The notes beneath the pieces were generated by a model, which saw nothing but the letters and a program-made list of their open reading frames with translations, searched no databases and was not told where the DNA came from. Of a stretch of 64,000 bases of DNA, positions 46,645-59,852 are shown one piece after another. The DNA is taken from positions 8,006 to 72,005 of the forward strand of contig CBDEMG010000060.1 of NCBI GenBank assembly GCA_965240855.1. The letters are read 5' to 3'. Source of the stretch: an uncultured Bacteroidia bacterium (GTDB lineage Bacteria; Bacteroidota; Bacteroidia; Bacteroidales; CAJPTX01). The stretch's first letter is position 1. Each line of letters opens with the position of its first letter. A program made the translations under genes and the position numbers.

Positions 46645-47088
46645 TTAGTTTTCCCCATCCAGTAAAGAGAGTACTCCTACCCCCATACCCGCTTTCCCAT
46701 CCTTAAACGAAAAGAAGAGGTGATAAGCACCCGTCTTTGTGCAGATATAATCAAAACTCGGGTAATCTTGTCCCGTTGCAGGATTATTGGTCGTCGCCAT
46801 CAATCGGTTGCTATCAAACAACTCAAGCTTCATCGTGCCATCAAAATCCTTCGAACTTGCAATAGAGAACCGATACCGATTTCCTTTTTTCAAAACTATA
46901 GGATAACGCTGAATAGGAGGCGGATCTGCTGCGTCTAAACGGATCTTAAAATCTCGGAGATACGTTGCTTCGGATCCTGCAAGTGCGCCACAGATATCCA
47001 AGAGCTCATCCTCCGATTGACCAAAAGCCAAACTTGGCAAAAATATCAAAGATAGTAGCACAACAGCTACAAGTAAAACGCGTCTCAT
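46645..47088 (-). CDS. Small exported beta-rich protein (unknown function)
   Basis: 147 aa with signal peptide LPSLAFGQ. 7-nt gap to the upstream lipoprotein gene. Confidence 0.7.
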   Translation of the reverse strand: MRRVLLVAVVLLSLIFLPSLAFGQSEDELLDICGALAGSEATYLRDFKIRLDAADPPPIQRYPIVLKKGNRYRFSIASSKDFDGTMKLELFDSNRLMATTNNPATGQDYPSFDYICTKTGAYHLFFSFKDGKAGMGVGVLSLLDGEN

Positions 47089-47095
47089 TATAATC

Positions 47096-48019
47096 CTAGC
47101 CTTTCGGTGTTATCAATTCGGTTCGTATCGCGATGATCTCGCTCATTAACTCTTGTATCAGTTCAGGTGTATACTCCACGATCTGCTTATCTTTTTGCTC
47201 CACAACTAGCTTACCATCCACGACACGCGTTTCTGGGGTGCCCTGTTCGTAGGTAATCCGAACATCATCGTACAGACTACGTAACTTCTCTAGACGATCA
47301 GCAAGCGCTCTTATATCCAAATCGCGCTCATATACACGCAAAATCGGAATCAACGTAGCCAAAACAACCTTCTGATCTGCTACACTCTCCTCCATACGCC
47401 TATTTTTGGTCATCTGTGCAACGCGCGTAGAAAGGTACATCCCTTCTACCCAAACCCCCGTTACGATTACGACACTCAATGCTGCTCTATTGGTCGATCG
47501 CAGATATCGATCAATCTTATTATAACTCTGTTGCGAAATAAAGATCAACGAATCCAAGTTTTCGTTATTCGATGCCAATCGCTTTAAAGTGGAAAAATCA
47601 AAAAATTGTCCCACCTGAATTCCATCAGCTAAATCCTTCACTGAAGAAATGTAATTCAAGACTGAAGTAGTCTTTTCATACATATTCAGGTAGCCCAAGT
47701 CTGTACCATACAAACCTAGCCCGAGTGCCTTTTCAAAATTCGTATTGAAATGATCTGCCACGTCTGTCGATATTAGCAAATCTTTATTGAAGGGCACTTT
47801 CAATCTTTTTATTAAGGCCGCCGTCTCTACTGGAGAAGAAATATTCTCCACCATCTTCTCTGTTACCCCCTCAGACAGTTCGACCTCCTGCTGATCCTTC
47901 AAGGAGTCGGGGATATTAAAATCATCCGAAACATCTGGCCCTGTACGTGTACACTGACAACCCCCAAGTATGAGACTCGTCAATGCAAACGCATAGATTA
48001 CCAATTTTCCTACTCTCAT
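47096..48019 (-). CDS. Lipoprotein, mostly helical (unknown function)
   Basis: 307 aa with lipobox LILGGC. Its ATG overlaps the ABC transporter stop (TAATG). Confidence 0.7.
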   Translation of the reverse strand: MRVGKLVIYAFALTSLILGGCQCTRTGPDVSDDFNIPDSLKDQQEVELSEGVTEKMVENISSPVETAALIKRLKVPFNKDLLISTDVADHFNTNFEKALGLGLYGTDLGYLNMYEKTTSVLNYISSVKDLADGIQVGQFFDFSTLKRLASNNENLDSLIFISQQSYNKIDRYLRSTNRAALSVVIVTGVWVEGMYLSTRVAQMTKNRRMEESVADQKVVLATLIPILRVYERDLDIRALADRLEKLRSLYDDVRITYEQGTPETRVVDGKLVVEQKDKQIVEYTPELIQELMSEIIAIRTELITPKG

Positions 48020-57086: not shown

Positions 57087-59001
57087 TGCTCCCTCCTGAG
57101 CTGCCTGAGAAAAGTAACGATGAGACATCTTGCGCTAGTAGATATACTTTACGATTCCCATCGTGCGAAAAAGAGAGTAGGGTTGCATAGAGGAAGCTAT
57201 TGCTATAGCCCTTCCACGACAATAACCGTGTCTGCGCAAAGCCATCTAAAACTCTTGTCCAGACCGTAGCAAAGACATCTTCCTGACCACTAGTCGTATA
57301 TGCGGTGGCAACATCCTTCAAATTCATTGTAACCAATTCCACGATGCCTTTTTGATGCACATAGTCTTCAAAACGTCTATTACCTCGTACATAGATCCCC
57401 GTTTCTGCAAACTCTGCATAATATACTGACTGCTCTACCACATTCTCCAAAATCTCAAACTCCTGCGTCCTACGCGTCATCTCCTCTTGCGTGGCCTGCA
57501 TTTCCTCCATATTTTGCCGCATCTCCTCCTCTTGCGAACGCATGGCTTCGCGCTGCTCTTGCGATTGTTGAAGAAGTTCTGCCGTCCGCTGATTGGTCTG
57601 AGCTTGTTGCAAAGTCTGTGCAATACTTACAGAGAGCAACTGTGCAAAGGTGACCATATACGGAGCAAAACCCTTCAACGAAGCTAACTCGAGCACACCA
57701 AGTAGCGCATCGTCTGTCTTAAGCGGCACGAGTAACAACTCCTTCGGGGGGATATTCCCAATACCAGAAGTTATATCGCAGTACTCGGGCGGTAGTACAT
57801 CGATGTGCACAAGATCTCGTTCTATAGCACATGTCCCAACTAGCCCCTCGCCAAGAGGAAGATCTTCTTGCATATATTTTTTACGATTGTATGCAAAAGC
57901 AGAAGCAAGGTGTAGTACTGTTCCACTCTTTCGCTCTTGTGCTAAATACAATCCACCTTGCGTCGCATCAAGATAATTTACCACCCGCTGTAGCAGGATA
58001 TCTACAAGTTCGGCTATATCATTACTATTTTCTCGCAAGAGCTTGGCAAACTCCGCTAGTCCTTCGTTTGTCCAACTTCGTATACGCTCAGCCTCCTTTA
58101 AGGTCTCTGCCTCTTGCTTCTGTTTTTGTAAATTGCTTCGAAGCTCTAGCAACGAATTGCCTAACGCATCATTTAATCCCAATGGAGTATACTCCTGCAT
58201 TAGATTATCGGCAGCCAGATGACGCACAAAAGAGGTTGTATTGGAAAGCCCCTCTATGACTTTATTCAACTCCGTTACTATTGAGTTGCCCTCTAAATGC
58301 ATACTATTATTGGGCATCGGATCGGGTAAACTCCCCTCTGCTAGTAGCGAGAGATCTCGCAATAATGCTTGATTAAAACGCCTTTCACGACGCATATATA
58401 GGGTCAGCATCAACCACGCCAACAAGCTCCCTACTAAGAAGAGCCCCCAACTGTATATTCGCAATGTATTGAGCCCCGCATCAAAAACAGAATCAGAGAC
58501 CTCGATCGCAAGAAAGCAATCGAGATCGCGAACGTATGTATAAATCACCTCGCGTTCCTCTTGCTGCGAATCACCGAAATTAATGCGCATAGTACCCCTA
58601 CGACTCGGGGAGGAGGACATTAAATCCAACACCTCGCGCGAGAGACGATCGCCATCCCTGAAAAAATGGAAGTTTATCTCCCCCGTCATTTGTACAACAA
58701 ACGGATAGCCCGTATTGCCATACATTGGGTCACGAAACAAGGTCCGTATCCTTGCATGCGCTGCAGTGTCCAATTTATGGAAATCGAGATCGAGCATCTC
58801 TAGAGTTTGCGAGAACTTCTCCGCAAAGCTCTCCAATGTACGTCCCAGCTGGTCGTGCGACTCTTTGTATATCAGACGACCAAAAATGTAAAAGCTAAAC
58901 CCTAGGAAAAGGATCAGCGAACCCGTAGTTAATACTCGAGCACGCACCGAACGCCAAAGTCCTCTAGTGGCTCTTATCAAACGAGAGAAAAACTCATGCA
59001 T
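57079..59001 (-). CDS. Membrane receptor: TM - single-Cache-like ectodomain - TM - HAMP-like - GAF - EEM heptad coiled coil - PAS-like
   Basis: 640 aa with TM helices at about 24-44 and 183-203. The ectodomain contains [32 protein letters not shown] segment precedes the GAF domain (TQGGLYLA...GEGLVGTCA...LGVLELAS). The coil is [20 protein letters not shown], followed by a roughly 110-aa PAS-like C-terminus. Confidence 0.8.
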   Translation of the reverse strand: [640 protein letters not shown]

Positions 59002-59006
59002 CGCTA

Positions 59007-59852
59007 CTAATCTTTACGCACATAAACCTGCGAGACTCGTTCAAATTTATCTGCCCACGACCCCATAATCGACTCATGAGCGCCCAATATCAAGACTCCC
59101 CCTGGATACAAATTGCGATAAAAGACTTCGAAGAGACGATTTTGCAGGCCTGCATTAAAGTATATCAGGACGTTGCGACAAAATATTATATCGTAACGAA
59201 CGAAAAAAGGATTGATTCCCTTTACGAGATCGTTCTTGCGGAAAGTCGGTTTCTTACGCAACCACTCGTGTATCTGAATCAGGTCACGTCCCTCATCTAT
59301 CTTAAAATACTTGGTATAAGGGACGGAGAGCTTCTCCTCGTAATTTAAGGGGTTCGTATTAATAACTAAGTCGAAATTGTCCAGATACGAGAGATTAAAA
59401 CGATAGCGATACTCCCCTTTTTGTGCAGCTTCAAGTATTTTCGTATTGATATCGCTTGCATATACGCGAGCCTTATCGTACAGATCTAACTCGTAAAGGA
59501 GCATTAGGTTTGAATATACCTCTTGCCCCATCGAGCAACCAGCATGCCAAACATTGAGATAATTCTGATTCCTGAATCGAGGGAAAATTCGCGAACGAAG
59601 TAAGAGCCAGACGGAGGGATCGCGGAACAATTCACTCGTATTGACTGTAATCGCCTCTACAACTTTTTCGCCATACGTCGCATCCTGAGCTATACGAACA
59701 AGGAGTTCGTTGATAGTCAGACGCTCATCATCTAGCACTTTGTAGAGTCGACGACGTAAGGAACGATCCGAATAATCGCTCAGATCGTATGAAGTATACA
59801 GCTGCAATGCTGTCACAAAACGCGTCAAGTCGTCTGAAATTTCTATCGCCAC
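59007..59852 (-). CDS. cheR: CheR-type protein-glutamate O-methyltransferase
   Basis: 281 aa with a GTG start preceded by TAAGGAG. Motifs are TSELFRDPSVW, VWHAGCSMGQEVYS, ASDINTKILEAAQKGEY and YDIIFCRNVLIYF. Confidence 0.85.
   Translation of the reverse strand: MAIEISDDLTRFVTALQLYTSYDLSDYSDRSLRRRLYKVLDDERLTINELLVRIAQDATYGEKVVEAITVNTSELFRDPSVWLLLRSRIFPRFRNQNYLNVWHAGCSMGQEVYSNLMLLYELDLYDKARVYASDINTKILEAAQKGEYRYRFNLSYLDNFDLVINTNPLNYEEKLSVPYTKYFKIDEGRDLIQIHEWLRKKPTFRKNDLVKGINPFFVRYDIIFCRNVLIYFNAGLQNRLFEVFYRNLYPGGVLILGAHESIMGSWADKFERVSQVYVRKD

Follow-up and report, generated by a model that had tools for sequence, protein, structure and literature searches.

A cluster of eleven minus-strand genes (59852..46645) in a 64,000-nucleotide stretch of DNA from an uncultured Bacteroidia bacterium (Bacteroidales; contig CBDEMG010000060.1, positions 8,006 to 72,005; hereafter the window) places a CheR/CheB protein-methylation module next to a SiaABC-type partner switch and an ABCG-like ATP-binding cassette (ABC) transporter. 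In order, the genes are cheR1, rec640, cheR2, cheB, gaf262, pp2c877, siaB, siaC, the ABC transporter gene, lipo307, and exp147. The main new finding is that the 640-residue receptor rec640 and the phosphatase pp2c877 have a common predicted helix after the GAF domain, with Glu-Glu (EE) pairs at heptad spacing. Gene content, family membership, synteny, an invariant helix, and catalytic motifs make up the observed evidence. With a probability of about 0.5, we consider that the CheR/CheB methylation unit serves receptors of the HAMP-GAF-helix-PAS type, and that these would feed into a SiaA-like PP2C phosphatase, a SiaB/SiaC switch and, as adjacency suggests, an ABCG-like exporter.

The helix of rec640 (residues 485-507; 57481..57549) is a candidate methyl-accepting site and the most conserved segment of the protein, with a column conservation of 0.86 vs. 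0.52 for the protein as a whole. Its pairs are E492E493, E499E500 (in EEMQAT), and E506E507, and the family consensus is fully kept in the receptor of the window. The methylation consensus of Escherichia coli methyl-accepting chemotaxis proteins (MCPs) is EEXXA(S/T) (PMC1079850), and an exact EEXXAT matching this consensus lies inside the receptor helix. The family profile, made from the best 150 of 3,627 representatives (mutually at most 50% identical), displays four EE pairs at seven-residue spacing. Eleven positions of this profile (E19-21, R23, Q24, N25, E27, E28, T32, Q33, and E34) are identical in at least 145 of the 150 receptors, and an upstream pair alternates between Glu and Gln (position 14 is E in 88 and Q in 24). 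The EE pairs appear to sit just before hydrophobic "a" residues, on the flank of the helix interface, where charge neutralization would be expected to alter packing. Receptor genes with this helix are flanked by cheR1 and cheR2, a position comparable to that of MCP genes in che operons.

The helix of pp2c877 (residues 331-355; 53818..53892) reads RELRANEDLLRQNAEEMQKTHEELE and is a degenerate copy. Orthologs in other clades read NEEELRQNAEEMRATHEELE, and an alignment of pp2c877 with 22 further full-length orthologs gives the consensus RTEKLL..AQEMT.ELQENEEELRQNAEEMRATHEELE. Even so, it is still the best-conserved segment of the phosphatase, at 0.77 vs. 0.65. The original prediction, an earlier reading of this DNA, had CheR and CheB acting on a non-MCP GAF receptor and/or the phosphatase. 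This idea gains from the near-invariant EE helix in both proteins but loses, for the phosphatase, from the degenerate copy in the window, and rec640 is therefore the better substrate candidate.

The receptor rec640 (57079..59001) comprises an N-terminal sensor, transmembrane (TM) segments, a HAMP-like region, a GAF domain, the EE-heptad helix, and a C-terminal PAS-like region, and has no catalytic output domain. GAF is its sole Pfam domain, and Pfam searches of the N- and C-termini at E<=10 gave nothing usable; of the labels first given to this protein, "GAF" was thus retained, and "Cache" (E = 0.22), "HAMP-like," and the C-terminal "PAS" did not gain profile support for the window protein, although many other members of its family have Cache, HAMP, and PAS at the corresponding places. 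An exhaustive HMMER search with residues 255-520 returned 3,627 cluster representatives (clusters at 50% identity) at E<=1e-30, named members coming from Chondrinema, Bernardetiaceae, and Marinilabiliales. Pfam scans of sets of 69 and 48 family members showed GAF in all and PAS in most, and many carry HAMP, dCache_1, MCP-like_PDC_1, sCache_3, Cache_3-Cache_2, PilJ, or 4HB_MCP. No histidine kinase, cyclase, phosphatase, or MCPsignal domain is listed for these 117 members, for which the lists hold all 24 families in the 69-member set and the 25 most frequent of 40 families in the 48-member set of unbiased representatives. A match to MCPsignal (PF00015) is likewise absent from rec640 and pp2c877 in Pfam. 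Members of this very large and apparently undescribed family resemble chemoreceptors in their arrangement and their range of sensors, but without the kinase-control tip, and by its predicted architecture the cluster phosphatase is the same module with a PP2C domain attached. When metagenomes were scanned with a DNA pattern encoding the EE motif, 120 stretches were found, 38 of which also have cheR or cheB, with the receptor usually between cheR1 and cheR2. The HAMP-GAF-EE-helix module is also repeated up to nine times in giant proteins, including P0249 (Chondrinema litorale, 1,989 aa), P0252, P0272 (2,405 aa), and P0256, the last of which has the EE motif five times with a 70-residue period.

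The layout of the cluster is compact. Its ten junctions measure, in order, +5, -8, -1, +3, 0, +39, +27, +66, -1, and +7 nucleotides (nt), with overlaps of ATGTATAG at the -8 junction and TAGTG and TAATG at the -1 junctions; the -8 junction presumes the 280-aa start of cheR2 at 57086, which the public gene call also uses. All coordinates, spacings, and overlaps of the eleven open reading frames (ORFs) as first described were reproduced exactly. A terminator-like hairpin on the same strand (46584..46606; a 10-bp stem with 5 GC pairs, followed by TTTTT) lies approximately 40 nt past the last gene. A gene for an MsbA-like ABC protein ends 47 nt upstream of cheR1 and is kept next to the cluster in the closest relatives only. 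A sigma-70 promoter scan gave matches at the level of shuffled sequence, the sigma-70 model being unsuited to Bacteroidota promoters, and Pfam scans of two flanking ORFs at E<=10 gave nothing usable. The organism is an oral one, and its sequence is also present on a metagenome scaffold of the Human Microbiome Project. Among named organisms, Candidatus Bacteroides periocalifornicus is the closest, its transporter being 78% identical.

Domain assignments were made by Pfam, NCBIfam, and PDB sequence searches, which bore out the CheR, CheB, GAF, SpoIIE, SiaB, and SiaC calls. The product of cheR1 (59007..59852) is a CheR-type protein-glutamate methyltransferase (PF01739, 4e-35; PDB 5FTW, 1e-24). 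It scores 121 bits against PF01739 and CheR2 scores 57 bits, the cutoff being 27; for CheR_N (PF03705), CheR1 reaches 19.3 bits, under the cutoff of 27, and CheR2 has no match. The motifs WHAGCSxGQEVYS, A(S/T)DI(N/D), and CRNVxIYF are kept across 43 CheR1 orthologs, and VYASDIN of CheR1 aligns with ILATDID of Bacillus subtilis CheR (5FTW); CheR1, which retains the S-adenosylmethionine-binding motifs, is predicted to be active. The divergent paralog CheR2 (56244..57086; PF01739, 2e-15) reads SSVYLS at the position of ATDID in the B. subtilis enzyme, so that the conserved Asp of A(S/T)D is gone. This Asp is lost from the second CheR in every two-CheR genome and kept, within A(S/T)D, in single-CheR lineages, a pattern that suggests a pseudo-enzyme partner; CheR2 is probably a catalytically impaired, non-catalytic paralog.

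The cheB gene (55675..56244) encodes a stand-alone methylesterase/deamidase domain (PF01339, 1e-46, 159 bits, residues 8-183 of 189). Alignment to PDB entries 3SFT (9e-24) and 1CHD shows the whole triad in place, with Ser in GxSxG, His, and Asp in the DG motif. There is no receiver domain in this 189-aa CheB, whose catalytic domain takes up residues 8-183, and the close orthologs are all 184-205 aa long. Immediately 3' of cheB, in 44 of 44 genome loci where the sequence continues, lies the gene of the TM-GAF protein gaf262 (54883..55671), which has two TM segments, a variable Glu/Lys-rich helix, and a GAF domain (GAF_2, 5e-7). Cross-hits assign this GAF to the same subfamily as the GAF domains of rec640 and pp2c877. 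It is the conserved part of the protein; the Glu/Lys-rich linker is little conserved in either sequence or length, and no Glu pair in it is fixed.

The phosphatase pp2c877 (52249..54882) consists of a TM region, a HAMP-like region, GAF, the EE-helix, two PAS domains, and a SiaA-like PP2C domain, with Pfam matches to GAF, PAS (twice), and SpoIIE (3e-18). In the PDB, its PP2C domain matches Pseudomonas aeruginosa SiaA alone (6K4E, 4.8e-34), and its best NCBIfam model is the SiaA equivalog (170 bits vs. a cutoff of 700). Next is a SiaB-family kinase (51634..52209), which matches PF19788 (7e-31), NF038262 (134 bits; cutoff 85), and P. aeruginosa SiaB (PDB 6KKO_A, 4e-8), and scores 52 bits with the SiaB equivalog model (cutoff 225). 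The SiaC-family phosphoprotein, or switch protein (51226..51606; PF09345, 2e-41, 141 bits; PDB 6KKO_C/6K4F, 2.5e-16), retains the Thr that aligns with T68 of P. aeruginosa SiaC (LVYFNTASSK vs. LLYLNTSSIK) and reaches 88 bits with its equivalog model (cutoff 150). Because all three equivalog scores are under their cutoffs, these proteins are regarded as members of the SiaA, SiaB, and SiaC families rather than as orthologs. The SiaC of Pseudomonas, when unphosphorylated, binds its neighbor SiaD and activates it, and DUF1987 proteins have been suggested to modulate adjacent proteins generally (PMC8457831). A second SiaC-family gene occurs beside a gene for an AMP-binding (acyl-adenylate-forming) enzyme in rumen Bacteroidales (locus L042, 886-1272; locus L043, 914-3306), which is another non-cyclase context for this family.

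The gene following siaC encodes a 1046-aa ABCG-like half-transporter (48019..51159), in which a nucleotide-binding domain (NBD) precedes an ABC-2 transmembrane domain (TMD), with a 260-aa cytoplasmic extension at the N-terminus and a 260-aa extension at the C-terminus. Pfam assigns TerB, ABC_tran (267-418), and ABC2_membrane (565-783). As read from the translation, Walker A (GASGAGKTT), the signature (SGGQRKR), and Walker B (ILFVDEPTSGLS) are intact. The best NCBIfam model, TIGR00955 of the White/ABCG type, scores 247 bits (5e-73), under its cutoff of 736, and the protein is therefore described as ABCG-like and not as a member of that curated subfamily. In every cluster, in genomes as well as in metagenome contigs, the transporter gene is directly downstream of siaC. 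The N-terminal cytoplasmic module (50374..51159) is conserved; in the AlphaFold2 (AF2) model (pLDDT 74), it comprises a seven-helix TerB-like domain, which matches 2H5N in Foldseek with a TM-score of 0.62, and an FHA-like beta domain; the matches of both domains are weak, and none reaches E<=0.001. This module is a plausible docking site for the switch protein. At E<=10, Pfam gave no FHA match in the beta domain and nothing usable in the C-terminal extension. The lipoprotein gene lipo307 (47096..48019) always follows the transporter gene and overlaps its stop codon; its 1,765 homologs are all named "hypothetical," and the protein had no NCBIfam match, no Pfam match even at E<=10, and no Foldseek match in the PDB better than E 0.69 (AF2 pLDDT 81). 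The small exported protein exp147 (46645..47088) has a signal peptide and a beta-rich region, found no family match in Pfam down to E<=10, and is encoded by the last cluster gene in 22 genomes.

The gene order recurs well beyond this organism. A CheB scan with one genome per species gave 59 loci, of which the 46 with a CheB at least 53% identical were analyzed by tblastn and family hidden Markov models. The full order, cheR(1/2)-cheB-TM-GAF-PP2C-siaB-siaC-ABC-lipoprotein-exported protein, is present in 23 of these 46, and the joined order continues up to the contig end in another 6; 5 loci are uninformative owing to contig ends, and in the remaining 12, cheR-cheB-TM-GAF stands alone, with housekeeping genes (ispD or QRPTase, for instance) next in line. 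The che module is therefore joined to the PP2C module in 29 of 41 informative Bacteroidota species genomes (approximately 70%), a recurrence far beyond chance, and the same order is found in many metagenome contigs. Since 12 of the 41 have the che module by itself, the cluster is best viewed as two separable modules. Carriers bear the labels Bacteroidales, Salinivirgaceae, Marinilabiliales, Cytophagales, Roseivirgaceae, and Flavobacteriales, so that the expectation of a neighborhood conserved among relatives was confirmed across Bacteroidales, Marinilabiliales/Salinivirgaceae, Cytophagales, and Flavobacteriales. Cultured carriers exist among Salinivirgaceae, Tenuifilaceae, and Cytophagales, and Tenuifilaceae bacterium CYCD has the cluster in a complete genome. 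Of the 23 full clusters, 8 contain the facultative rec640-type receptor, which is usually encoded between cheR1 and cheR2. In one locus (L024), the six-gene block from PP2C to the exported protein is turned around as a whole with respect to the che module, with the siaC-transporter adjacency kept.

Each module also occurs separately. Stand-alone cheR-(cheR)-cheB-TM-GAF sets were found in gut and rumen Bacteroidales and in Chlorobiota (loci L026-L031, L036, and L039-L043, approximately 8300-11350; L044 and L045, 9176-11295). The Chlorobiota locus L045 was considered as a joined cluster and rejected: the PP2C gene 6 kb upstream has a Y_Y_Y/beta-propeller sensor, and unrelated genes lie between. 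Conversely, PP2C-siaB-siaC-transporter sets without cheB or TM-GAF directly upstream were observed on contigs L174 (25-6393) and L186 (4295-10468), and on L174 a 1,055-aa EE-helix receptor takes the place of the upstream cheB/TM-GAF genes.

A working model for the cluster can be proposed on these grounds, in which we infer every protein-protein and enzyme-substrate link. The first module, comprising cheR1, the optional rec640-type receptor, cheR2, cheB, and the TM-GAF gene, would provide reversible glutamate methylation for non-MCP receptors laid out as sensor, TM, HAMP, GAF, helix, and PAS. The second, comprising the receptor-like PP2C, the SiaB kinase, the SiaC phosphoprotein, the ABCG-like transporter, the lipoprotein, and the exported protein, would act as a SiaABC-type switch. 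Signals from the receptor(s) and from the phosphatase's own sensor would pass through HAMP, GAF, and the post-GAF helix to set PP2C activity. CheR1 would methylate the EE pairs of the helix and the receiver-less CheB would demethylate them, the main target here probably being the 640-aa receptor, and this methylation would reset sensitivity as it does in MCPs and in RsbK/RsbM of Bacillus cereus. The PP2C and the kinase would together set the phosphorylation of the conserved Thr in the SiaC homolog, one form of which may bind the TerB-like/FHA-like module of the transporter and switch the export of an envelope or extracellular substrate that lipo307 and exp147 would handle. The TM-GAF protein and the degenerate CheR2 could be non-catalytic scaffolds that bring the enzymes to the receptors by way of the common GAF subfamily.

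Part of this design has a precedent. In B. cereus RsbK (CHASE3-HAMP-GAF-S-helix-HK-REC, HK and REC being histidine kinase and receiver), the S-helix is methylated by the CheR-like RsbM, and the protein controls the PP2C phosphatase RsbY and the RsbV/RsbW switch; 127 RsbK-like kinases have been reported in 10 phyla, and RsbM is described as an orphan methyltransferase without a paired esterase (Chen et al. 2012; PMC4574943). Therefore, the principle of helix methylation upstream of a PP2C partner switch is already known, and the view in the original prediction that no described system has this wiring has to be given up. The likenesses are a membrane sensor with a HAMP-GAF-signaling-helix core, a CheR-type gene beside the sensor (likened by architecture), and a PP2C that, as read from sequence, would act on a phospho-Ser/Thr partner-switch protein. 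However, the sensor core here is followed by PAS and nothing else (rec640) or by a fused PP2C, with no HisKA, HATPase_c, or Response_reg match in the cluster in Pfam. Unlike the orphan RsbM, moreover, the two CheR paralogs of the cluster are accompanied by a CheB and a dedicated TM-GAF protein; the switch is of the SiaB/SiaC type and not RsbW/RsbV, and it is followed by an ABC transporter rather than by a sigma factor. What is new, as far as sequence can tell, is the combination of RsbK/RsbM-type helix methylation with a SiaABC-type switch; it is not a categorically new system. Literature searches covering the contexts of SiaC/DUF1987/DUF6272, CheB/CheR fusions, and chemotaxis in Bacteroidota turned up no account of this operon.

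Similarities to other systems are also apparent. Like SiaABCD of P. aeruginosa, the second module has a membrane PP2C, a SiaB-family kinase, and a SiaC-family protein in the order phosphatase, kinase, phosphoprotein, effector. However, the position of the diguanylate cyclase SiaD is taken by the ABCG-like transporter, the lipoprotein, and the exported protein; GAF, the EE-helix, and two PAS domains stand between the HAMP-like region and the PP2C, where SiaA has PP2C directly after HAMP; and CheR/CheB genes lie upstream. With canonical chemosensory adaptation the system shares the CheR and CheB catalytic domains, Cache/4HB/PilJ sensors, HAMP, heptad EE pairs including EEXXA(S/T), and receptor genes placed inside the che cluster and also scattered or in tandem elsewhere. 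It differs in having no MCPsignal hairpin, no CheA, CheW, or CheY in the clusters, a CheB without receiver, and Ser/Thr dephosphorylation as the proposed means of transduction. The transporter can in turn be compared with a different group of proteins. Some ABC transporters with N-terminal FHA domains, e.g., Rv1747 of Mycobacterium tuberculosis, are regulated by Ser/Thr phosphorylation. Here too an ABCG-like NBD-TMD half-transporter follows an FHA-like cytoplasmic beta-sandwich in a Ser/Thr phospho-signaling locus, a weak resemblance at the level of fold (E >= 0.045). Unlike the Rv1747 type, a TerB-like domain comes first, the phosphothreonine-binding residues are not evident, and the phosphoprotein would be the SiaC homolog rather than the transporter.

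CheB/CheR fusion sensors (CheR-coil-PAS-kinase), for which annotations exist in many phyla, resemble the cluster in that CheR and CheB are genetically tied to an EE-heptad coil and PAS outside the CheA pathway; they differ in that their (NEELxxx)n coil is fused to the enzyme, whereas here the enzymes are separate and a different, fixed helix follows the GAF domain. In the CheB scan, CheR proteins with such long (NEELxxx)n coils directly after the CheR domain, with EE every seven residues, were encountered beside CheB genes in Armatimonadota, Spirosoma, Polyangia, and Capsulimonadaceae (L054, 2754-4631; L055, 3297-5261; L056, 11068-15129; L058, 9887-12880; L060, 10962-12983). These are possibly self-contained methyl-accepting sensors; experimental work on CheB/CheR fusions was not found in the literature searched.

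Several observations weigh against our reading of the cluster, and they bear on rival explanations that deserve consideration. The Glu residues of the helix are nearly invariant and, save for one pair, do not alternate with Gln, and the helix of the window phosphatase (NEDLLRQNAEEMQKT) is degenerate, the oral clade lacking the first EE pair and having K in place of A. No che gene is present in 73 of the 120 motif-bearing metagenome stretches, though many of these are short; 16 of the 73 hold tandem arrays of two to four receptor paralogs. In addition, it is adjacency that supports the transporter as the target of SiaC, and the proposal that it is the output of the switch could not be taken beyond this; the Foldseek matches of its beta domain (residues approximately 170-237), although almost all to FHA, are weak (E 0.045-0.5, none at E<=0.001), and D-R-P-L stands at the expected S-R-x-H, so that the residues that typically bind phosphothreonine are not evident. 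The helix could equally be conserved for a purely structural role or for partner binding. This leads to an explanation, quite unlikely in our judgment, in which the post-GAF helix is purely a structural signaling or dimerization element, CheR and CheB modify another protein or CheB is mainly a deamidase, and the transporter genes form a separate unit. Signaling helices after GAF or HAMP domains are indeed common, polar Q, N, and T at fixed heptad positions suit register-specific pairing, and the scarcity of Glu/Gln alternation and the indirect tie between SiaC and the transporter agree with it. However, it is countered by the module adjacency kept in most informative genomes, the siaC-transporter adjacency in every cluster, the fusion of CheR to EE-heptad coils in other phyla, the exact EEXXAT inside the helix, and the documented methylation of the S-helix in RsbK (PMC4574943). 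Slightly less probable still is the possibility that gaf262 is the sole substrate and partner of CheR/CheB through its Glu/Lys-rich juxtamembrane helix, making a three- or four-gene sensor that was placed upstream of PP2C in some lineages. The constancy of gaf262 as the partner of CheR/CheB, in all stand-alone modules of Bacteroidales and Chlorobiota as elsewhere, argues for this possibility and against the EE helix, which gaf262 does not have; its Glu-rich linker and the 0-nt junction with the PP2C gene in the window also favor it. Against it, that linker is the poorly conserved part of the protein, and the invariant EE helix of the neighboring proteins would be left unexplained.

The remaining explanation, unlikely but to be taken seriously, is that CheR1 and CheB are ordinary adaptation enzymes for canonical MCPs that signal via CheA, CheW, and CheY encoded elsewhere, the Sia adjacency reflecting co-regulation or history; it may also hold in addition to methylation of the EE-helix receptors, since MCPs may be CheR/CheB substrates alongside or in place of these. 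A canonical MCP with a PDC sensor, HAMP, and MCPsignal (41446..43341, plus strand) lies beside a UDP-glucose dehydrogenase gene outside the cluster, 3.3 kb beyond it on the opposite strand, and with its textbook hairpin tip and Glu-rich stretches resembling methylation helices it is a possible alternative substrate. Moreover, an MCP lies 1.6-4 kb from the stand-alone che module in five rumen Bacteroidales loci, and the 12 genomes with the che module and no PP2C module nearby are in line with this explanation. However, orthologs of the window MCP (64% and 35% identity) keep a UDP-glucose dehydrogenase neighbor in housekeeping contexts with no che or sia genes, and two further Bacteroidota MCP genes (Bacteroidales and Marinilabiliales) are solitary, with no che genes nearby; a fixed linkage between MCP and cluster was accordingly rejected. 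The slot inside the che module is held by EE-helix receptor genes and not by MCP genes, and CheB lacks the receiver through which CheA normally controls CheB. Furthermore, no cheA or cheW was found within 10 kb in the 46 related genome loci, and an E. coli CheW query detected no CheW-like ORF in approximately 1.9 Mb of related loci, except in one unrelated Rhizobiales che operon. Among 46 scanned ORFs of the window, there was no CheA, CheW, CheY, histidine kinase, response regulator, or GGDEF protein; the scan took in every gene of the cluster together with the large ORFs at 67-30079 and 38561-63969 and did not extend to the ORFs of 30265-38504, whose orthologs in the locus of one relative carry the annotations lipoate ligase, ValRS, BipA, and trypsin-like proteases. 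On the other side, CheA, CheW, and CheY have been reported in the genome bin of the closest named relative (PMC6275135). That report rests on a metagenome bin annotated automatically, and generic kinases or receivers, or contamination, could account for it. The term "CheA-less," as originally applied, is therefore upheld for the cluster, as it is for the window ORFs that were scanned and, in 46 genomes, for the 10-kb surroundings, and is withdrawn for the genome as a whole.

The MCP genes near stand-alone modules in rumen Bacteroidales (L036 and L040-L043) are on the other strand from the module, and in L043 the MCP gene is followed by that of a 163-aa secreted protein without family.

If methylation of EE-helix receptors does operate as proposed, several implications would follow. 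CheR/CheB methylation is classically tied to MCP/CheA arrays. RsbK/RsbM, the only studied exception that we found, has no esterase and uses a histidine kinase, so that a complete methylation/demethylation pair combined with Ser/Thr partner switching would amount to a second, independent design of an adapting pathway. More tentatively, and with considerable doubt on our part, non-flagellated Bacteroidota may possess a CheA/CheW-independent, methylation-adapting pathway in which a large receptor family signals, perhaps in mixed complexes, to PP2C, then to SiaB/SiaC, and finally to an ABC exporter. Such a pathway would allow temporal sensing for surface behaviors such as adhesion, gliding, and matrix export, and would hint at how gliding, non-flagellated Bacteroidota, including oral and gut species, sense gradients or adapt. 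It would also assign a role to thousands of unannotated "GAF/PAS domain-containing" Bacteroidota proteins (approximately 3,600 clusters at 50% identity) and extend the SiaABC switch from cyclic-di-GMP synthesis to transporter control.

The window otherwise contains a ribosomal-protein operon, a type IX secretion/gliding core, topA, groEL, and housekeeping genes. The type IX secretion/gliding core (17644-24006) consists of porP/sprF, a gldK-like gene of the FGE-sulfatase family, gldL, gldM, and gldN, and beside it (13341-17405) is the gene of a 1,354-aa BspA-type leucine-rich-repeat protein with a Por_Secre_tail sorting domain. With these gld/por genes approximately 22 kb from the signaling cluster, the organism therefore has the secretion/gliding machinery of Bacteroidota. 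Three ORFs, 29357-30079 (240 aa), 44755-45618 (287 aa), and 45685-46311 (208 aa), had no Pfam match; the last of these lies just past the cluster terminator and, among the loci compared, is present on the source scaffold only. Finally, within window 1-44000, the GC skew of the plus strand is very strong (-0.30 to -0.37) over the minus-strand ribosomal and type IX secretion genes and about 0 (+0.04 to -0.07) at 38-44 kb, where the genes lie on the plus strand. This pattern is therefore not simply a coding-strand bias and appears to include a large replication-strand component.

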